Assembly: GCF_000354175.2 (NCBI RefSeq)
Contig: NC_022349.1
Coordinates: 990,001 to 1,022,000 of the forward strand
Reading direction: 5' to 3'
Length of the DNA stretch: 32,000 bases
DNA from: Vibrio alginolyticus NBRC 15630 = ATCC 17749
GTDB lineage: Bacteria; Pseudomonadota; Gammaproteobacteria; Enterobacterales; Vibrionaceae
The position numbers and the translations under genes are program-made. The first letter of the stretch is position 1, and the number at the start of each line of letters is the position of its first letter. Below are positions 222 through 20,801 of this stretch, one piece after another. The notes below the pieces were generated by a model. The model did no database searches. It worked only from the letters and a program-made list of their open reading frames with translations, and had not been told where the DNA came from.

Positions 222-341
222 TAACGCCCTGTTAAGGGGTGAGCAACGCAATACCAATGCCGCCGCATACCACCTTAATCACTTAAACCAACGCATAGTG
301 AAGATGCCACGCGTTGCGAATCCCTCTTGAACAGTTTGTTA
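222..341 (-). repeat. attC site (VCR-like), 120 bp
   Basis: Plus strand starts TAACGCC and ends TTGTTA. Arms are imperfect inverted repeats (CTTAACAGGGCGTTA vs CTTGAACAGTTTGTTA, with an extra G). Identical to 14749..14868. Confidence 0.9.
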
Positions 342-688
342 ACTGAGCGCCTTTCAGTTTTCGCCGATTTTTCAGCCACTTTCGCCAAAGCTCGTTTTGC
401 TAATTAATGATTAGCAAAGCTAACTCAAATATGTGTTTAACAAAAAAATTACCGTTGATCTTTAGTTTGAAATGCGTCTCACAACACCATACTTCGGCGA
501 TGTAAGTGCGCCGAACTAATCGCGAACGCCTTATATTATTAGAAGGCTTTATGCCGCCTTTCACATCAGTAAGCTTAAGTACCAAACTGAAATTAGTCGC
601 ATTACCTCAGCTAAGGAAACCGACCGAACACGCTAAACCTCCGAACCTAGAAACCGTATCAATGTGCTTTCGTATTTTCTGTGCCAGT
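342..688 (-). other. ORF-less integron cassette, type X copy 1 (identical to 14869..15215)
   Basis: Bounded by attC sites. The only ORFs are two overlapping 61-aa frames with TTG/GTG starts. Contains the palindrome TTGCTAAT-TAATG-ATTAGCAA. Confidence 0.6.
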
Positions 689-808
689 TAACGCCCTGTT
701 AAGGTGTGAGCAACGCAATACCGATGTTGCAGCAGACCACCTTAAACACTAAACGCAACGCATAGTAAAAATGCCACGCGTTGCGAATCACTCTTAAACA
801 GATTGTTA
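689..808 (-). repeat. attC site, 120 bp
   Basis: TAACGCC...TTGTTA architecture with conserved GCAACGC / GCGTTGCGAATC inner arms. Confidence 0.9.
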
Positions 809-1522: not shown

Positions 1523-1643
1523 TAACGCCTTGCTAAGGTGTGAGTAACGCAATACAAAAGCTACCGCACAGCGCCTTAATCACCATAAGCCACCGCAAAG
1601 TAAAAATGCCACGCGTTACGAATCACTCTTAAGCAATTTGTTA
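1523..1643 (-). repeat. attC site, 121 bp, subtype shared with 2695..2816 and 9124..9244
   Basis: TAACGCCTTGCTAAGGTGTGAGTAACGC...GTTACGAATCACTCTTAAGCAATTTGTTA. Near-identical in three places. Confidence 0.9.
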
Positions 1644-2069
1644 GTACATGCGCTACTTCTATTTATGCGCTCCAAGATATTGAAAAGTGGCATGATATGA
1701 AAGACTTTGAACACTGAAGTGAGACGGGCAGCTACAAAACTTAAACTCGGTTAAGAGACGAGAGTTAGCTAGAAGAAAAACGTAATGAACTGCCCTACTT
1801 TCACTGGTTTCAAATTAGAAAAGGATTTTTTCCTCGTACTTCAACAGCCACACCAAAAATAATCATGGTTCTCTCAAAAGCCACCACAAAAGTGAAGAAG
1901 CACCAAAGAAATAGGCTAAGAGTTAGAAACCGTAAACGGTGAAATCAAAGCGAACACTCCGCATATAGTGCCACCGGAAAGAACGTGAAAGGCACTAACT
2001 GAAAGGTGTAAAGACGAGCGCCAAAACAGATAAATACTAAAACTTAGACTTTTAATGCTAAAACCGTAC
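1644..2069 (-). other. ORF-less integron cassette, family N copy A (426 bp)
   Basis: No ORF of 61 aa or more on any frame. Homologous to 2817..3243, 9245..9671 and, more distantly, 14319..14748. Plus strand is A-rich and T-poor. Confidence 0.75.
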
Positions 2070-2188
2070 TAACGCCCAGTTAAGGGGTGAAGCACGCAAT
2101 ACCGATGTTGCCGCATAGCACTTCAACACCGAAACCAACGCATACCCAAAATGCCACGCGTGCTGAATCCCTCTTGAACTGTTTGTTA
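2070..2188 (-). repeat. attC site, 119 bp
   Basis: TAACGCCCAGTTAAGG...CTCTTGAACTGTTTGTTA. Confidence 0.88.
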
Positions 2189-2695: not shown

Positions 2696-2816
2696 AACGC
2701 CTTGCTAAGGTGTGAGTAACGCAATACAAAAGCTACCGCACAGCGCCTTAATCACCATAAGCCACCGCATAGTAAAAAATGCCACGCGTTACGAATCACT
2801 CTTAAGCAATTTGTTA
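2695..2816 (-). repeat. attC site, 122 bp (same subtype as 1523..1643)
   Basis: Near-identical to 1523..1643. Confidence 0.9.
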
Positions 2817-3243
2817 GTACATGCGCTACTTCTATTTATGCGCTCCAAGATATTGAAAACTGGCATGATATGAAAGGCTTTGAACACTGAAGTGAGACGG
2901 GCAGCTACAAAACTTAATTCCAATTGAAAGACGAAAGTTGGCTAGAAGAAAAACGCACTGAACTCCCCTACTTTTACTAACTTCAAATTAGAAAAGGATT
3001 CGTTCCTCGCACTTCGACGGCAACACCAAAGAAAGACAATTCTGACTTAGTAAAAACCACGAAAGAGAAGAAGCGCCACAGAAATAGGCTAAGAGTTAGA
3101 AACCGTAAATGGTGAAACCAAAGCAAACACTCCGCATATAGTGCCACCGGAAAGAACGTGAAAGGTACAAACTGAAAGGTGTAAAGACGAGCGCAAAAAC
3201 AGATAAACACCAAAACTTATGACCTTTGATTTCAAACCCGTAC
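2817..3243 (-). other. ORF-less integron cassette, family N copy B (427 bp)
   Basis: Homolog of 1644..2069. Its only long ORF (2983..3213) is in a different frame from the ORF seen in copy C. Confidence 0.75.
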
Positions 3244-3363
3244 TAACGCCCTGTTAAGGGGTGAGCAACGCAATACAAAAGCCGCCGCATACCACCTTAA
3301 CCACTAAACGCAACGCATATTGAAAATGCCACGCGTTGCGAATCCCTCTTGAACAGTTTGTTA
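3244..3363 (-). repeat. attC site, 120 bp
   Basis: TAACGCCCTGTTAAGGGGTGAGCAACGC...GCGTTGCGAATCCCTCTTGAACAGTTTGTTA. Confidence 0.9.
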
Positions 3364-6461: not shown

Positions 6462-6710
6462 ATGACCACTAGAATTTTAGCCGATGTTGCTGCAAGCATT
6501 ACTGAGTTGAAAGCTAACCCTATGAAAGTTGCAACTAGTGCTTACGGCGAACCTGTTGCTGTATTAAACCGAAATGAACCAGCATTTTATTGCGTGCCTG
6601 CCGAAGCGTACGAAATGATGATGGACAGACTCGAAGATCTGGAACTACTAGCTATCGCTAAAGAGCGTGAATCTGAAGAGAGCATTTCGGTAAATATTGA
6701 TGACCTATAA
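6462..6710 (+). CDS. Type II antitoxin, Phd/YefM (StbD/RelB-like) family, 82 aa
   Basis: N-terminus ITELKANPMKV...PVAVLNRNEPAFYCV is the Phd/YefM signature. It overlaps the downstream RelE-type toxin gene by 11 nt. Confidence 0.85.
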   Translation: MTTRILADVAASITELKANPMKVATSAYGEPVAVLNRNEPAFYCVPAEAYEMMMDRLEDLELLAIAKERESEESISVNIDDL

Positions 6711-6990
6711 ACTCGACTTTAAAAAGAGTGCACTCAAAGAGTGGAAAAAGCTTGGCTCTACTCTGCAACAACAATTTAAGAAAAAGCTAATCGAGCGCTT
6801 AGATAACCCACATGTTCCGGCTTCAAAGCTTTCTGGAGCTGACAACATGTATAAAATTAAGTTGCGTCAATCGGGCTACCGTCTCGTCTACAAAGTTGAA
6901 GACGATGTCATCATTGTAACCGTCTTAGCAGTTGGAAAACGCGAACGTAGCGATGTTTACCGTAAAGCCATGAAAAGGTTAGATGATTGA
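6700..6990 (+). CDS. Type II toxin, RelE/StbE family mRNA interferase, 96 aa
   Basis: KLDFKKSALKEWKKL...YRLVYKVEDDVIIVTVLAVGKRERSDVY is a classical RelE/ParE-fold pattern. True ATG is at 6700; the ORF track used TTG at 6697. Confidence 0.85.
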   Translation: MTYKLDFKKSALKEWKKLGSTLQQQFKKKLIERLDNPHVPASKLSGADNMYKIKLRQSGYRLVYKVEDDVIIVTVLAVGKRERSDVYRKAMKRLDD

Positions 6991-9123: not shown

Positions 9124-9244
9124 TAACGCCTTGCTAAGGTGTGAGTAACGCAATACAAAAGCTACCGCACAGCGCCTTAATCACCATAAGCCACCGCAAA
9201 GTAAAAATGCCACGCGTTACGAATCACTCTTAAGCAATTTGTTA
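9124..9244 (-). repeat. attC site, 121 bp (same subtype as 1523..1643)
   Basis: Near-identical to 1523..1643 and 2695..2816. Confidence 0.9.
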
Positions 9245-9671
9245 GTACATGCGCTACTTCTATTTATGCGCTCCAAGATATTGAAAACCGAGATGATATG
9301 AAAGGCTTTGAACACTGAAGTGAGACGGGCAGCTACAAAACTTTACCCCGATTGAAAGACGAAAGTTGGCTAGAAGAAAAACGCACTGAACTGCCCTATT
9401 TTCACTTGCTTTAAATTAAAAAAGGATTCTTTCCTCGTCACTCAACAGCCACACCAAAAGTAATCACGGTTCTCTCAAAAACCACCACGAAAATGAAGAA
9501 GCACCAAAGAAATAGGCTCAGAGTTAGAAGCCGTAAACGGTGAAATCAAAGCGAACACTCCGCATATAGTGCCACCGGAAAGAACGTGAAAGGCACTAAC
9601 TGAAAGGTGTAAAGACGAGCGCCAAAACAGATAAACACCAAAACCTATGACCTTTGATGCCAAACCCGTAC
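9245..9671 (-). other. ORF-less integron cassette, family N copy C (427 bp)
   Basis: Homolog of 1644..2069. Its only long ORF (9475..9681) runs into the attC and is out of frame with the ORF of copy B. Confidence 0.75.
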
Positions 9672-9791
9672 TAACGCCCAATTAAGGTGTGAAGCGCGCA
9701 ACCACGACACTCAATTTAACCACCGTAATCACCAAACTTAAACCAAACTAAAAATGCCAAGCGTGCTGAATCACTCTTAAATTGCTTGTTA
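9672..9791 (-). repeat. attC site, 120 bp, divergent centre
   Basis: TAACGCCCAATTAAGGTGTGAAGCGCGC...GCCAAGCGTGCTGAATCACTCTTAAATTGCTTGTTA. Confidence 0.88.
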
Positions 9792-13356: not shown

Positions 13357-14178
13357 TTATCTCGCTTGGTAGATAAACTCTCGATGGTACTTTAAGTACT
13401 GAGCTGTTTCTTTACTCAAGCTGCGAAGTTTTAAACTTTGCTCAACATTCAATGCCGTTAGCGCTGAAGGGTCTAGTGATTCGGAAATTAAAATTTTCCC
13501 ATTCTCATCAAAACTAATCATGCCACTATCGAACAAGGTATCCAGATTTGGTGTCAGCAACAAGCCATTGTAAGGATCTAATCGTTCTTCATTTGAAGAA
13601 TCACGCCAAGGTTTTATATGCGAAGCTTTTAAGAGCCCAACTTGCTCGCACCCAGTTACAGAACATCTTTTCCAAAGGTCGATTAAGGTTTTTCGATACT
13701 TACCCTGTCCCCTGCGACTACTAACTAAACGCTCCACTTCTGTTTCAGTAAGTTTATCAAGTTCACCACTTGCTTTAGCGTCTGCTATTTCGTCTTCTGG
13801 GTTTCTCAAGTAGAGTGGCTTTAATTCTGACAAACGAATCAAAAAAGAGCGCATGGATTCTTTTGTTTGAAACCCAAATGGGATTCCAAATGGTATAGGC
13901 AGCTCCCCTCGGTTGAGTCTTTTAGGAAACTTGCGCATGCTAGACTTGTGATTCAATGAACCTGTAGTCTCTACTCCATCGAGCAAAGCTAGTTCATTTT
14001 TGTAGAATTCTGCACGAGGATGGATCACTAACCCCGAAGGTTTCGCTCCAGCCTGTTTATTAATGTAAACGTATTGTTTTAGCGATGGTAAAAAGAACTG
14101 AATCGCATATTTAACTTCATGCCTTTCAGTAGCTTTGAACTCACTCAATACTTCTTCCATTTCTTTTAATGTGATCAT
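13357..14178 (-). CDS. HNH endonuclease domain protein, 273 aa, with an uncharacterised N-terminal domain
   Basis: The C-terminal CSVTGCEQVGLLKASHIKPW...NGLLLTPNLDTLFDSGMISF matches the HNH (HNH_2-type) nuclease pattern seen in restriction-like enzymes. Confidence 0.75.
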   Translation of the reverse strand: MITLKEMEEVLSEFKATERHEVKYAIQFFLPSLKQYVYINKQAGAKPSGLVIHPRAEFYKNELALLDGVETTGSLNHKSSMRKFPKRLNRGELPIPFGIPFGFQTKESMRSFLIRLSELKPLYLRNPEDEIADAKASGELDKLTETEVERLVSSRRGQGKYRKTLIDLWKRCSVTGCEQVGLLKASHIKPWRDSSNEERLDPYNGLLLTPNLDTLFDSGMISFDENGKILISESLDPSALTALNVEQSLKLRSLSKETAQYLKYHREFIYQAR

Positions 14179-14198
14179 TTACCAACTCTCGAAAGTGC

Positions 14199-14318
14199 TA
14201 ACGCCCAATTAAGGGGTGAGTAACGCAACACCAATGCTACCGAAAACCACCTTAACCACTAAAATTAACGCATAGTAAAAATGCCACGCGTTACGAATCC
14301 CTCTTGAATTGTTTGTTA
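14199..14318 (-). repeat. attC site, 120 bp
   Basis: TAACGCCCAATTAAGGGGTGAGTAACGC...GCGTTACGAATCCCTCTTGAATTGTTTGTTA. Confidence 0.9.
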
Positions 14319-14748
14319 GTACGCTGCCCTTAAAGCCTTTGGCACACACCAAGATATTGAAATATAGCACGAAAATTATGGCTTAAAACGCTGAAGCCAA
14401 ACAGACAACTACCAAACTTGAACTCAATTTCAAAACCCAAGCTGGCGAGAAGAAAAACTTGCTTAACTGACCTATTTTCACCGTTTTCAAATTAGCAAAG
14501 GATACGGACTTCGAAACTGAACGGCAGCGCCAAAGAAACTCAGTGTTTGACAAAAATGTTCCAGCATCAAAGAAATCACACCAAAGAAATAGCCAAAAAG
14601 TTAGAAACCGTAAACGGTAAATTCACAGCGAACACTCCGCATATAGTGCCACCGGAAAGATCGTGAAAGGCACAATGTTTCAGGTGTAAAGCAAAGCAGA
14701 GAAACCGGTAAACTCTGAAAATTTTAACTTTTGATGCCAACCCCGTAC
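14319..14748 (-). other. ORF-less integron cassette, family N copy D (430 bp, divergent member)
   Basis: No ORF of 61 aa or more. Patchy homology to copies A-C, with a near-identical core at about 14600..14673. Confidence 0.7.
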
Positions 14749-14868
14749 TAACGCCCTGTTAAGGGGTGAGCAACGCAATACCAATGCCGCCGCATACCAC
14801 CTTAATCACTTAAACCAACGCATAGTGAAGATGCCACGCGTTGCGAATCCCTCTTGAACAGTTTGTTA
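14749..14868 (-). repeat. attC site, 120 bp (identical to 222..341)
   Basis: Part of the exact duplication 222..688 = 14749..15215. Confidence 0.9.
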
Positions 14869-15215
14869 ACTGAGCGCCTTTCAGTTTTCGCCGATTTTTC
14901 AGCCACTTTCGCCAAAGCTCGTTTTGCTAATTAATGATTAGCAAAGCTAACTCAAATATGTGTTTAACAAAAAAATTACCGTTGATCTTTAGTTTGAAAT
15001 GCGTCTCACAACACCATACTTCGGCGATGTAAGTGCGCCGAACTAATCGCGAACGCCTTATATTATTAGAAGGCTTTATGCCGCCTTTCACATCAGTAAG
15101 CTTAAGTACCAAACTGAAATTAGTCGCATTACCTCAGCTAAGGAAACCGACCGAACACGCTAAACCTCCGAACCTAGAAACCGTATCAATGTGCTTTCGT
15201 ATTTTCTGTGCCAGT
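14869..15215 (-). other. ORF-less integron cassette, type X copy 2
   Basis: Identical to 342..688. Confidence 0.6.
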
Positions 15216-15335
15216 TAACGCCCAATTAAGGTGTGACCCACGCGACCACGATACTAAAATTAGACGCCGTAAACACTAAACTTAACCCAAACTCAAAATG
15301 CCAAGCGTGGGGAATCACTCTTAAATTGTTTGTTA
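15216..15335 (-). repeat. attC site, 120 bp, divergent subtype
   Basis: TAACGCCCAATTAAGGTGTGACCCACGCG...GCCAAGCGTGGGGAATCACTCTTAAATTGTTTGTTA. Confidence 0.88.
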
Positions 15336-16141: not shown

Positions 16142-16390
16142 ATGACCACTAGAATTTTAGCCGATGTTGCTGCAAGCATTACTGAGTTGAAAGCTAACCC
16201 TATGAAAGTTGCAACTAGTGCTTACGGCGAACCTGTTGCTGTATTAAACCGAAATGAACCAGCATTTTATTGCGTGCCTGCCGAAGCGTACGAAATGATG
16301 ATGGACAGACTCGAAGATCTGGAACTACTAGCTATCGCTAAAGAGCGTGAATCTGAAGAGAGCATTTCGGTAAATATTGATGACCTATAA
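16142..16390 (+). CDS. Type II antitoxin, Phd/YefM family (second copy)
   Basis: Protein identical to the product of 6462..6710. Confidence 0.85.
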   Translation: MTTRILADVAASITELKANPMKVATSAYGEPVAVLNRNEPAFYCVPAEAYEMMMDRLEDLELLAIAKERESEESISVNIDDL

Positions 16391-16670
16391 ACTCGACTTT
16401 AAAAAGAGTGCACTCAAAGAGTGGAAAAAGCTTGGCTCTACTCTGCAACAACAATTTAAGAAAAAGCTAATCGAGCGCTTAGATAACCCACATGTTCCGG
16501 CTTCAAAGCTTTCTGGAGCTGACAACATGTATAAAATTAAGTTGCGTCAATCGGGCTACCGTCTCGTCTACAAAGTTGAAGACGATGTCATCATTGTAAC
16601 CGTCTTAGCAGTTGGAAAACGCGAACGTAGCGATGTTTACCGTAAAGCCATGAAAAGGTTAGATGATTGA
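16380..16670 (+). CDS. Type II toxin, RelE/StbE family (second copy)
   Basis: Protein identical to the product of 6700..6990. Confidence 0.85.
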   Translation: MTYKLDFKKSALKEWKKLGSTLQQQFKKKLIERLDNPHVPASKLSGADNMYKIKLRQSGYRLVYKVEDDVIIVTVLAVGKRERSDVYRKAMKRLDD

Positions 16671-16710: not shown

Positions 16711-17493
16711 CTACATACTTTCGTACTCAACTGGGCTGACCTGCCCCAACGCTGAGTGTCTTCTTCTGCGATTGTAAAATACCTCGATGTATTCGAAGAT
16801 GCCCATTCGGGCTTCTTCGACAGTTTGATAGTCTTCTGCGTATATCAGTTCGACTTTCAGTCGACTGTAGAACGACTCCATCACCGCATTATCCCAGCAG
16901 TTACCCTGCCGACTCATGCTCGGTACACCTCCATGCTTACGCATGAAGTCTTGATATTTGTAGGCTCTGTATTGTACACCACGGTCTGAGTGGATAATGA
17001 CGCCCTTAGGCGGCTTACGTGACTCAAACGCCATTTTTAGAGCGTTAGTGATTAGCTCGACGGTCATCGTTGTCCCAAGCGACCAACCCACAATGCGTCT
17101 TGAATGCAAGTCCATCACTGTCGCTAAGAAGAGCCAACGGCTCTTCACCCAGATATACGTAATGTCCGTAACCCATTTCTGATTTGGCGTCTCAGACTCA
17201 AAGTCTCTACGCAGTAAATTGTCGGCAACATTCGTCATAGCAGCCACATAATTCACGCAGCAGGCATAGCCTGCTTCGTTGAGCTCTTCGGCTATTCGCA
17301 CTGAGCCGTAACGTGCCCGATATTGGGCAAAGGTACACATGACGAGCTGTTCAAAGCGCTCTCGCCGCTTTGAACGCTCACTCGGCGTATGATGGCACCA
17401 CTTATAATAGCCGCCCCGACTCACTTCTAAGGTGCGGCACATTAAGCTAATGGAATACTCACCGACATAGCTTTCGATGAACTCGTACTTCAC
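16711..17493 (-). CDS. IS3-family transposase OrfB (DDE integrase domain), expressed as an OrfAB fusion by -1 frameshift
   Basis: WVTDITYI...HSDRGVQY...GNCWDNAVMESF carries the DDE motif. It overlaps the orfA stop in the -1 frame. Confidence 0.88.
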   Translation of the reverse strand: MKYEFIESYVGEYSISLMCRTLEVSRGGYYKWCHHTPSERSKRRERFEQLVMCTFAQYRARYGSVRIAEELNEAGYACCVNYVAAMTNVADNLLRRDFESETPNQKWVTDITYIWVKSRWLFLATVMDLHSRRIVGWSLGTTMTVELITNALKMAFESRKPPKGVIIHSDRGVQYRAYKYQDFMRKHGGVPSMSRQGNCWDNAVMESFYSRLKVELIYAEDYQTVEEARMGIFEYIEVFYNRRRRHSALGQVSPVEYESM

Positions 17494-17798
17494 TCTTGCT
17501 GCTTCGCGAAGTACGCCGAGACCTTTTTTAGGAATTCCATTTCATCTTTGAGTCGCTTGTTCTCGCGCCTTAGCGCCCGAAGCTCTTCGGACTCTTTCTT
17601 CGAGTAATCGACACCGTCTAAGGTGTTAAACTGTTTATCAGATAGGCGTGTGAACTGGCGCTTCCAGTTTCGGATCTGCTGGGCACTGATGCCCAGCTCC
17701 TTGGCAACGGAAACGGCTGTTCGGCCAGGAAGACTGGCCAAGCGGACTGCTTCTTTGCGGAACTCTTCGGTGTACGCTGGATTACGATGTTTAGCCAT
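17490..17798 (-). CDS. IS3-family transposase OrfA (HTH and leucine zipper), 102 aa
   Basis: YTEEFRKEAVRL...VAKELGISAQQIRNWKRQ helix-turn-helix followed by a coiled-coil LRRENKRLKDEMEFLKK. Confidence 0.88.
   Translation of the reverse strand: MAKHRNPAYTEEFRKEAVRLASLPGRTAVSVAKELGISAQQIRNWKRQFTRLSDKQFNTLDGVDYSKKESEELRALRRENKRLKDEMEFLKKVSAYFAKQQE
17523..17529 (-). promoter_or_regulatory. Programmed -1 ribosomal frameshift heptamer A-AAA-AAG
   Basis: Minus strand reads CTA AAA AAG GTC near the end of orfA. The -1 frame continues GLGVLREAARVKYEF into orfB. Confidence 0.7.
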
Positions 17799-18939: not shown

Positions 18940-19059
18940 TAACGCCCGCTTAAGTGGTGAGCAACGCAATACCGATGTTTCCGCATACCACCTAAATCAC
19001 TAAATTTGCCGCAAACCACAAATGCCACGCGTTGCGAATCCGTCTTAAAGCGTTTGTTA
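18940..19059 (-). repeat. attC site, 120 bp (attC of the first cassette)
   Basis: TAACGCCCGCTTAAGTGGTGAGCAACGC...GCGTTGCGAATCCGTCTTAAAGCGTTTGTTA. Confidence 0.88.
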
Positions 19060-19605
19060 GGCTTCTAGCTCACGATATAGCACTAAGCAATTGTATTCTT
19101 TGCCGAATTCTATTTCTTGATCGATAGCTCGAATTTGCGTAAAACCTTGTCTGTACCAGAACCTAAAAGCAGAAATGTTTTCTGCATAAACATTTAAACC
19201 TACGTTGTGTAAATTTGCGTACTCACAGGCTACGGCGATAACACTACTAACTATTTCTGAACCCAAGCCTTTACCTTTAAAACTCGGTAGAATTGTTAAC
19301 ATAGGAAGCCAAAGTGTGCCAGTTGACGGAGCATGAAACTCCATCTGTATGTAACCAACCACTTGACCTTTCTTTGTGCTAATTTTTCTTAGGTAAAATG
19401 CACCTTGCTCGTCAGATAATTTTGACTTGTTGCTTTCAGCTATTAATTTTTCATACTCGGTGATAGACCATTCCCTAAACGTTGGGTCCATTGCTTTTAC
19501 ATTTAAGTTACTGTCAAAGATTGACTTGGCTAGCTCCGCCTCATCACTTGAAAACTCAGTGAAAACCAAATTTTTGGATTCCCATTGTGGTATCAACACT
19601 AACAA
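19057..19605 (-). CDS. GNAT family N-acetyltransferase, about 180 aa; first, attI-proximal cassette
   Basis: FKGKGLGSEIVSSVIAVA...ENISAFRFWYRQGF. No ATG start is available: either TTG at 19605 or GTG at 19599, downstream of AAGGAGGAAG. Confidence 0.75.
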   Translation of the reverse strand: MLVLIPQWESKNLVFTEFSSDEAELAKSIFDSNLNVKAMDPTFREWSITEYEKLIAESNKSKLSDEQGAFYLRKISTKKGQVVGYIQMEFHAPSTGTLWLPMLTILPSFKGKGLGSEIVSSVIAVACEYANLHNVGLNVYAENISAFRFWYRQGFTQIRAIDQEIEFGKEYNCLVLYRELEA

Positions 19606-19838: not shown

Positions 19839-20801
19839 ATGAAAAGTCAGTTTTTACTTAGTGTAAAAGAGCACATGCTTACTCGTCATTATGCGAATAA
19901 AACTATCGAAAGTTATCTATTTTGGATAAAACGTTTTATCACTTTTCACCAGCTCGCCCACCCATCAACACTAGCAGAAGATGATGTCATTCAATTTCTG
20001 AGTTACTTAGCGGTAGAAGAAAAAGTTGCGGTAAAAACGCAAGCTTTGGCGCTGAACTCAATATCATTTTTATATCGTGATTATTTTAAAACCCCACTAT
20101 CACTTGATATGAGATTTCAGAAATCCTTGACCGAAAAGAAACTTCCCGTTGTGTTAACCAGGGAGGAGATCCGAAGATTCGTTCAGCATATCGACCCGAG
20201 GTATAGACTCCATATTCAGCTACTTTACGGCTCCGGGCTTCGAGTTATGGAATGTTTACGCTTAAGAGTTCAAGACATCGATTATGATTATGGTGCAGTT
20301 CGCGTTTGGCAAGGAAAAGGAGGTAAAAATCGTACAGTCACATTAGCCAAAGAACTACATGAACCACTCAAAGCTCAAGTTAATTTAGCAAGAAACTACT
20401 ACTTTAAAGATAGGCACATGCCTGGTTATGCGGGCGTATATATCTCTGAAGGTTTACGACGTAAATACCCAAAAGCGGAGCTAGATTTTAACTGGCACTT
20501 TTTGTTTCCATCAACAAAGTTAAGCGCAGATCGAGACACTGGTGAACTCAGAAGGCATCATATCAATGAAAGCGCAATACAAAGAGCGGTAAAGCGCGCG
20601 GCAAGCGACGCAAGCATTGAGAAAACTGTAACTTGCCACACACTAAGACACAGTTTTGCCACGCATTTATTGGAATCTGGCGCAGACATTAGAACTGTTC
20701 AGGAACAATTAGGGCATACTGATGTAAAAACCACGCAAATCTATACTCACGTTATCGAGCGCGGGGCTGGTGGTGTGTTGAGTCCATTATCCAGCCTTTA
20801 G
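19839..20801 (+). CDS. intIA: Integron integrase IntIA (tyrosine recombinase), 320 aa
   Basis: Conserved R...HxxR...Y catalytic pattern (GLRVMECLRLRV, HTLRHSFATHLL, TQIYTHV). Also carries the integron-specific insertion (RRKYPKAELDFNWHFLFPS). Confidence 0.95.
   Translation: MKSQFLLSVKEHMLTRHYANKTIESYLFWIKRFITFHQLAHPSTLAEDDVIQFLSYLAVEEKVAVKTQALALNSISFLYRDYFKTPLSLDMRFQKSLTEKKLPVVLTREEIRRFVQHIDPRYRLHIQLLYGSGLRVMECLRLRVQDIDYDYGAVRVWQGKGGKNRTVTLAKELHEPLKAQVNLARNYYFKDRHMPGYAGVYISEGLRRKYPKAELDFNWHFLFPSTKLSADRDTGELRRHHINESAIQRAVKRAASDASIEKTVTCHTLRHSFATHLLESGADIRTVQEQLGHTDVKTTQIYTHVIERGAGGVLSPLSSL

Follow-up and report, generated by a model that had tools for sequence, protein, structure and literature searches.

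A 32,000-nt stretch of the Vibrio alginolyticus NBRC 15630 (= ATCC 17749) genome (contig NC_022349.1, positions 990,001 to 1,022,000; hereafter the window, whose own numbering is used throughout) carries an integron integrase gene, intI, and an array of integron cassettes. We studied one cassette of this array, cassette D, which an initial annotation, made from the letters alone, had described as a divergent copy of a repeated sequence without an open reading frame (ORF). We find cassette D to be a gene-less cassette, complete and mobile, of a Vibrio chromosomal integron and one member of a non-coding cassette family present in many copies. In Vibrio, sedentary chromosomal integrons contain hundreds of cassettes, of which a sizeable fraction are gene-less, and the question of what such cassettes do has so far been answered in part, by reporter assays of 30 cassettes from four strains. 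The family of cassette D is widespread, with carriers in more than 20 species.

Cassette D and its integron

The following features define cassette D and the integron in which it lies:

14202..14751, minus strand: cassette D, a complete gene-less integron cassette of 550 nt, crossover to crossover
14202..14322, minus strand: attC of cassette D, 121 nt, a family-specific variant of the Vibrio cholerae repeat (VCR)-like type
14323..14751, minus strand: non-coding body of cassette D, ~429 nt from crossover to attC, with no frame open in all copies
19839..20801, plus strand: intI, the integron integrase gene, oriented divergently from the cassette array, with a Phage_integrase match in Pfam (E = 2.5e-41) and an N-terminal SAM-like domain

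The window contains a Vibrio-type chromosomal integron. To the left of intI, ~27 copies of a VCR-like attC repeat of 120-140 nt are found from ~19070 down to position 1, and the cassette array as a whole spans ~19600 down to position 1. The plus strand shows these repeats as TAACGCC...TTGTTA, the reverse complement of an attC in its usual orientation, and the cassettes are therefore read on the minus strand, with the attC at the low-coordinate end belonging to each cassette. The majority of array ORFs of at least 70 amino acids (aa) are on the minus strand, in agreement with this reading direction.

Cassette D is located ~5 kb from intI and is delimited by CTAA/CGCC crossover motifs (plus strand) at 14198 and 14748. 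These motifs are the reverse complement of GGCG/TTAG. The cassette is bounded by attC sites in array orientation, with the crossover in the conserved G/TTRRRY core site. The initial annotation had divided the same unit into an attC at 14199..14318 and a body at 14319..14748, which is right to within 3-4 nt of the boundaries given above. The attC of cassette D belongs to the 19-27-copy attC repeat families of the array and is retained together with the body in all homologues (column entropy 0.17-0.49). In an alignment of 39 full-length homologues the left crossover coincides with the edge of conservation, the entropy being ~1.8 at 14156-14194 and 0.2-0.5 within the cassette. Because the body keeps its own attC and similarity stops at the crossover, the unit is a mobile cassette and no piece of a larger element. 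Such a cassette would be excised and integrated by IntI.

Spread of the family and its conserved core

Three further copies are present in the window, all of a subfamily that we call A-type:

1526..2072, minus strand: paralogue A
2698..3246, minus strand: paralogue B
9127..9674, minus strand: paralogue C

Copies A, B and C are mutually ~90% identical, whereas D is 68-71% identical to them over 640 nt and has an attC visibly unlike theirs, as the initial annotation had observed.

We scanned a set of assemblies, one genome per species, for an exact 20-mer from the conserved core described below and obtained 46 loci in Vibrio assemblies. Carriers included V. harveyi, V. rotiferianus, V. owensii, V. 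jasicida, V. diabolicus, V. proteolyticus, V. nereis, V. nigripulchritudo, V. splendidus, V. aestuarianus, V. bivalvicida, V. ouci and several unnamed species. Records from a plasmid collection added carriers in V. parahaemolyticus, V. campbellii and V. alginolyticus; in the plasmid records with homologues, no annotation lay beneath any match. With a degenerate core pattern, 42 more loci were found, all of them in metagenomes. All genome loci were from Vibrio except one in a Lachnospiraceae metagenome-assembled genome (L007:5975-6090), the sole non-Vibrio match to the 20-mer. This match falls in a motif, cgcatatagt[ag]ccaccggacatcgtaaatgt, that recurs after 78 nt, in surroundings that resemble a repetitive coding region, and we took it as unrelated because about one chance match is expected in a collection of such size.

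A profile hidden Markov model (HMM) of the body, run on all fetched DNA, identified 109 family copies (score at least 150), some of which contained neither search pattern. More than 20 Vibrio species, as well as marine metagenomes, contributed copies, which were cassettes in every case; in the 46 Vibrio genome loci and 42 metagenome loci the body was found with its own attC among unrelated neighbours. The 98 distinct full-length bodies align over 435 columns and form nine clusters at 80% identity, with a lowest pairwise identity of 57%. The window cassettes reach their best identities (94-96%) in the group of V. harveyi, V. rotiferianus and V. diabolicus. D itself falls into a small cluster (c5) together with three copies from Vibrio sp. 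HA2012 that are arranged head to tail at ~550-nt spacing (L036:3853-5365); overall, six of 85 copies are directly followed by another copy of the family. The window contains four copies and the fetched loci up to four each (22 of the 83 copy-bearing loci hold 2-4); counted by genome, the loci fetched show some 2 to 8 copies. Distinct subfamilies stand side by side in single arrays, namely in the window and in loci L020/L021, L023 and L032. The family is far older than a local duplication, and the age proposed for it in the initial annotation is thereby borne out.

The least conserved part of the A-type copies, columns ~178-215 of the alignment (~14535..14570 in D), exists as two sharply differing haplotypes, ...TTTTTACTA-AGTCAGAATTG... 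and ...GTGGCTTTTG-AGAGAACCTTG..., which are shuffled relative to the remaining cassette. This pattern suggests recombination among paralogues.

Conservation between D and the A-type copies is concentrated in islands. D is 71% identical to the A-type consensus over 420 positions, with identical runs of 34, 20, 14, 12, 12, 11, 10 and 10 nt. The longest run exceeds the 95th percentile of permutations (34 versus 22 nt), and the eight runs of at least 10 nt compare with a permutation mean of 4.0. The longest runs lie at 14349..14362, 14448..14458, 14486..14495, 14530..14538, 14581..14592, 14599..14618, 14627..14660, 14662..14673 and 14682..14691, and every island named in the initial annotation matches one of them. 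The main conserved elements are:

14349..14362, minus strand: conserved island, sense TTTCAATATCTTGG, with 100 occurrences in family copies and three one-mismatch matches outside
14448..14458, minus strand: conserved island, sense GTTTTTCTTCT, a run of identity between D and A-type
14486..14495, minus strand: conserved island, sense CTAATTTGAA, a run of identity between D and A-type
14581..14592, minus strand: conserved island, sense CTATTTCTTTGG, whose motif TTTCTTTGG is seen again at 14530..14538
14599..14673, minus strand: conserved family core of 75 nt, with D/A-type identity runs of 20, 34 and 12 nt
14644..14656, minus strand: invariant block 1, sense TCCGGTGGCACTA, invariant in all nine cluster consensuses and in 82 distinct core sequences
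14600..14616, minus strand: invariant block 2, sense CGTTTACGGTTTCTAAC, nearly invariant though outside both search patterns

Block 1, whose invariance is partly imposed by the search patterns, occurs 117 times within family copies and twice outside, both times in the chance locus L007; block 2 occurs 105 times in family copies and never outside. In the 600 kb of fetched integron DNA, the conserved blocks are found 96-117 times inside copies and essentially never elsewhere.

Both collection scans used patterns from the core, which by itself imposes part of the invariance seen there. Against this search bias we used bystander copies, which are copies lacking the pattern that fetched their locus. 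In the 16 bystanders the mean identity to the family consensus was 0.905 in the core and 0.785 elsewhere (ranges 75-97% and 60-92%, respectively), and in the eight bystanders from divergent clusters it was 0.75-0.93 in the core and 0.60-0.72 elsewhere. The conservation of the core is thus no search artefact, and the core, which had been annotated as almost unchanged in D, is the most constrained part of the family.

Length is constrained as well. The aligned body, which is the stretch 14327..14747 and not the full ~429 nt, measures 417-421 nt in all 98 sequences, and among cluster representatives we counted 0.03 indel events per substitution. What is constrained in the family is its length and its primary sequence, the latter in the core and a small number of islands of 10-15 nt; RNA helices are not. 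Since selection clearly bears on a short core and a few islands, with the rest of the body drifting, mutagenesis can target ~100 nt instead of 430.

Two explanations for the architecture of the body were tried and rejected. Internal repeats do not build the cassette, since the best self-alignments score no better than those of shuffled sequences. Nor is the core a degenerate attC left by the fusion of two cassettes: with an attC HMM built from 27 sites of the window, family bodies reached only E≥1.3 (0.4-3.2 bits). A literature search with sequence k-mers returned only two papers, both unrelated.

Regulatory and selfish readings of the family

Cassettes in Vibrio arrays with neither an ORF nor a BLASTX match were described by Boucher et al. 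2006 (BMC Evol Biol 6:3, PMC1382264). Their homologues were found in vibrios only, with high identity over the whole length, and were frequently paralogous; purifying selection was inferred, and the cassettes were proposed to be selfish elements or to have promoter or regulatory-RNA functions (PMC1382264). The D family agrees with this class point by point, being ORF-less, restricted to vibrios and similar over its full length, with several paralogues per array and no synonymous-site pattern. What that paper gives is the class, with copy numbers, and not the D sequence family. Transcripts of non-coding cassettes were subsequently detected by Michael and Labbate 2010 (PMC2945992).

The 30 gene-less cassettes that Blanco et al. 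2024 (NAR 52:2961, PMC11014356) cloned came from V. cholerae, V. fischeri, V. parahaemolyticus and V. vulnificus. Promoter activity in the sense direction was found in 26 of the 30 and in none of the size-matched lacZ controls, and start sites were located at varied positions, including within attC (PMC11014356). The D family is like these cassettes in its size (~450-650 bp including attC), in the lack of an ORF >70 aa, in its T/G-rich sense strand and in forming paralogous families inside sedentary chromosomal integrons. The gene-less class is defined by the lack of an ORF that exceeds a threshold (150 bp in the work of Boucher et al., 70 aa in that of Blanco et al.) and is conserved or matched in databases, and D, whose longest ORF is 56 aa, belongs to the class on this count. 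We compared a profile of the D family with 14 representatives of the assayed cassettes (C1-3, C6, F1-3, P1-4, V1, V2 and V7) and found no homologue (best nhmmer E 0.18, best blastn E 0.13); core k-mers were not found in the text of the supplement of PMC11014356 either. As judged by sequence, the D family is a new family of a class of gene-less Vibrio cassettes that has been known since 2006 and was studied by experiment in 2024. New here are the delineation of the family, its subfamilies, the 75-nt core and an explicit negative on RNA structure.

Short sequences common to D and the assayed cassettes were seen. A 13-nt exact match between D and V1, TTCTTTGGCGCTG, is also common to V7, and its origin may be compositional. 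The motif TTCTTTGG(C/T)G occurs one to three times per family copy and, in the window, TTCTTTGG is found on the minus strand twice in D (14530..14538 and 14581..14588) and once each in A (1903..1910), B (3026..3033) and C (9504..9511). There are 10 matches to TTCTTTGG in the window, compared with 2.0 expected, half of them within the D family. The motif is also present in the unrelated gene-less cassettes V1, V7, C2 and P3 of PMC11014356, and it may be compositional or common to several families.

ORF-less cassettes of oral (Treponema-type) integrons are likewise reported to have promoters (Tansirichaiya et al. 2019, Sci Rep 9:8388, PMC6557892). They differ from the D family in host lineage and attC type and are alike in their ORF-less state.

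By analogy with the assayed class, a promoter role is the likeliest reading of the D family, plausible if somewhat short of probable. Promoter activity is thus expected by analogy only, the family not being among the assayed cassettes. Cassette D would be a regulatory cassette that carries a promoter and acts in cis on its array: initiation by RNA polymerase would take place inside it, on the sense (minus) strand, in D and related subfamilies likely at an extended -10 element, and transcription would then cross attC into the next cassette, here one with a gene for an HNH endonuclease. Cassettes too distant from Pc, the promoter of the integron itself, would thereby be expressed. The 75-nt core, whose two invariant blocks are private to the family, would probably be a recognition module for a protein or for the polymerase. 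The features concerned are:

14361..14369, minus strand: candidate extended -10 element TGcTATATT, with a weak -35-like TTTTAA at 14383..14388, 16 nt upstream; a consensus match only
13357..14178, minus strand: HNH-endonuclease cassette gene directly downstream of D, 273 aa, with an HNH_2 domain and a weak DUF2002 match

The candidate -10 element is found at one fixed alignment column in 39 of the 98 sequences, D included, ~35 nt upstream of attC, a modest support from the sequence itself. Among the 79 non-tandem copies whose flank is long enough, 66 have a sense ORF of at least 70 aa within the next 700 nt, in agreement with the promoter reading; in the window, the HNH_2 gene is the first gene that any transcript leaving D would meet.

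Several observations weigh against a promoter role. At the position of the -10 element the majority A-type consensus reads TGCCACTTT and has no site above threshold, and a sigma-70 consensus scan found no full site in D on either strand. The core is unlike a sigma-70 or a sigma-54 promoter; read by eye, it does have a perfect sigma-54 -24 element (TGGCAC), but the -12 GC is 2 nt too close and is missing in some clusters. Any cassette of such an array would be expected to have an ORF downstream as often. For a promoter, ~420 nt of length-constrained sequence would be more than is needed, and tandem copies (6 of 85, with three in a row in Vibrio sp. HA2012) would be pointless; nor does a promoter role explain the core. 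The 14 assayed representatives to which we compared the family are not homologous to it, as noted above, and in-silico promoter calls fail to predict activity (PMC11014356).

By-eye reading of the core for other known signals gave no convincing candidate conserved across clusters for sigma-E, sigma-28, sigma-32, CRP, IHF, dif, RfaH ops or boxA, and for parS the half-site TTTCACG only.

The conserved core can also be considered in its own right. It is possible, though doubtful, that the 75-nt core, with the family-private blocks TCCGGTGGCACTA and CGTTTACGGTTTCTAAC ~27 nt apart, is a dedicated functional module spread by the integron among vibrios, either as a binding site for a host or integron factor that controls array expression or recombination, or as a regulatory-RNA seed. 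The D family would then be a mobile regulatory cassette of a defined type, as opposed to an AT-rich promoter of a generic kind. Binding of a factor by the core, or transcription fed by the cassette into silent downstream cassettes, would bear on the expression of large arrays and also on the capture of such cassettes by mobile resistance integrons.

A cassette without any host function, hitch-hiking in the array, would persist and multiply because its attC is a good integrase substrate, and the conservation of its body would be due to gene conversion among paralogues and recent horizontal transfer, to which sequences that aid its own recombination or retention may add. Boucher et al. also raised this possibility (PMC1382264), and several properties of the D family agree with it: confinement to Vibrio arrays, invariable presence in multiple copies (2-4 in 22 of 83 loci) including tandems, 81-95% identity among A-type copies of different species, mosaic A-type haplotypes that suggest inter-copy recombination, and the lack of an ORF, a conserved structure and a clear promoter. 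However, strongly uneven conservation within the unit is not what neutral drift with gene conversion predicts, and the divergent, unbiased copies retain 75-93% identity in the core compared with 60-72% in the rest. Neither the near-constant length in the face of identities down to 57% nor the persistence of unhomogenised subfamilies within one array (the window, L020/L021, L023 and L032) is predicted by a selfish origin, which we regard as rather unlikely. A purely selfish D family would offer a clean case of parasitism on the integron system.

RNA structure, coding capacity and neighbouring cassettes

The initial annotation had preferred to read the conserved islands as parts of a structured RNA, with an array of protein-binding sites as the alternative, and had pointed to two hairpins in the core, both of which are present as inverted repeats:

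14607..14618, no strand assigned: hairpin 1, short inverted repeat ACCG-TAAA-CGGT, no covariation, outer pair broken in 30 of 82 sequences
14646..14673, no strand assigned: hairpin 2, inverted repeat GTGCC-N18-GGCAC, whose pairs hardly vary; one pair is unpaired in 12 of 82 sequences, the only frequent departure

Among the 82 distinct sequences there were no compensatory changes in hairpins 1 and 2, and all 500 shuffles were at least as good. Folds of the 86-nt core gave z-scores of -1.2 to -1.9 on either strand, and ~10% of dinucleotide shuffles did as well. Rfam 15 yielded no match at the gathering threshold in the window and none at E≤10 for 14150..14800. In an RNAalifold analysis of 48 sequences over 427 columns the consensus energy was -15.5 kcal/mol for the sense and -11.8 kcal/mol for the antisense strand. 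This falls far short of the mean single-sequence energies (-101 and -81 kcal/mol, respectively), so that the structure conservation index of the whole body is 0.15 on either strand. With 98 sequences in 100-column windows, the consensus energy was zero outside the core and the index was ~0.3 over the core.

An alternative fold of the sense strand, with GGUGG/UCACC enclosing GCGG/UCGC, showed one compensatory cell in 738, which was equalled by 228 of 500 shuffles. In these alternative helices, C-to-T changes that keep a G.U pair outnumber transversions by ~5:1, compared with ~2:1 in unpaired C columns, where the counts are of sequences and not of independent events. No intrinsic terminator was found inside the D body, and the single terminator-like site lies in attC.

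As the hairpins are devoid of compensatory change and the index is ~0 outside the core, the islands do not coincide with conserved helices, contrary to the idea that they might. We found no evidence that the D family folds into a structured RNA, and with no Rfam match, no covarying helix and hairpins that fold no better than shuffles, this reading was rejected. The family is like the structured RNAs and small RNAs of Rfam in being conserved non-coding sequence with short inverted repeats, and differs from them in the lack of a family match and of a covarying helix.

A largely unstructured regulatory RNA, close to the idea of the initial annotation, would be a small or antisense transcript whose invariant blocks serve as seed or protein-binding sequences, acting elsewhere or on neighbouring cassettes. 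The family-private invariant blocks of 13-17 nt do resemble seed regions, the two candidate helices of the core show the G.U-keeping bias just described, and non-coding cassette transcripts have been detected in Vibrio sp. DAT722 (PMC2945992). On the other hand, the bias is counted over sequences, the search of Rfam at E≤10 was negative, and the structural measures are low (index ~0 outside and 0.3 inside the core, 0-1 compensatory cell in 738, z-scores only down to -1.9). The body also has no intrinsic terminator of its own, with the terminator-like site confined to attC, and no conserved promoter is found upstream of the core. A regulatory RNA is unlikely.

Coding capacity was assessed in several ways. 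The longest ORF within D is 56 aa, and a six-frame survey found no frame open across all copies, in line with the earlier description of the cassette as ORF-less. Body lengths vary by 1-4 nt, and indels of 1-2 nt shift the frame between copies. In a codon-phase test, three-base periodicity of column entropy was absent everywhere. One sense-strand frame of ~50 codons is open in most copies; the differences between subfamilies in this frame fall mainly at codon positions 1 and 2 and are non-conservative. A 13-codon ORF in the core, MRSVRFDFTVYGF, starts at 14642 and is present in 73 of the 98 sequences. In D it occupies 14642..14601 on the minus strand (MRSVRCEFTVYGF), between the invariant blocks, with the TAA of block 2 as its end. 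Stops at codon 2-3 interrupt it in clusters c6, c7 and c8, its start codon is lost in some copies, and many of the replacements are radical. Copy B contains a 76-aa ORF with a TTG start that is not conserved in other copies. Seven ORFs had no Pfam match at E≤10, and the longest open family frames gave only noise in NCBIfam (12-15 bits compared with cut-offs of 74-825).

A pseudogenised known gene was rejected on the lack of translated similarity in Pfam and NCBIfam, the full protein database not having been searched; within the same scope, D and its relatives are not fragments of a known gene or mobile element. That the family encodes a small protein, such as a type I toxin or leader peptide, or is a decayed known gene is very improbable: the ~50-codon frame and the 13-codon ORF speak for it, and frame surveys, translations, periodicity, mini-ORF haplotypes, Pfam and NCBIfam are all contrary.

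Other cassettes of the array were noted in passing. The cassette just upstream of D in array order (14752..15218, ~467 nt) has no ORF of at least 70 aa, and a second copy, 100% identical, is located at ~225..691 near the left end of the window; the two represent a second gene-less cassette family in the array, unrelated to the D family. A Phd/YefM antitoxin and ParE toxin pair is encoded at 6462..6990 on the plus strand, in a cassette inverted relative to the array, and the pair is duplicated 9.7 kb away at 16142..16670 (plus strand) with 99% identity. An IS3-type insertion sequence (16711..17798, minus strand), consisting of an HTH_Tnp_1 orfA and an orfB with an rve integrase core, lies within the array. 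A GNAT acetyltransferase is encoded by the ORF nearest intI (19057..19605, minus strand), which lies at the attI-proximal array end.

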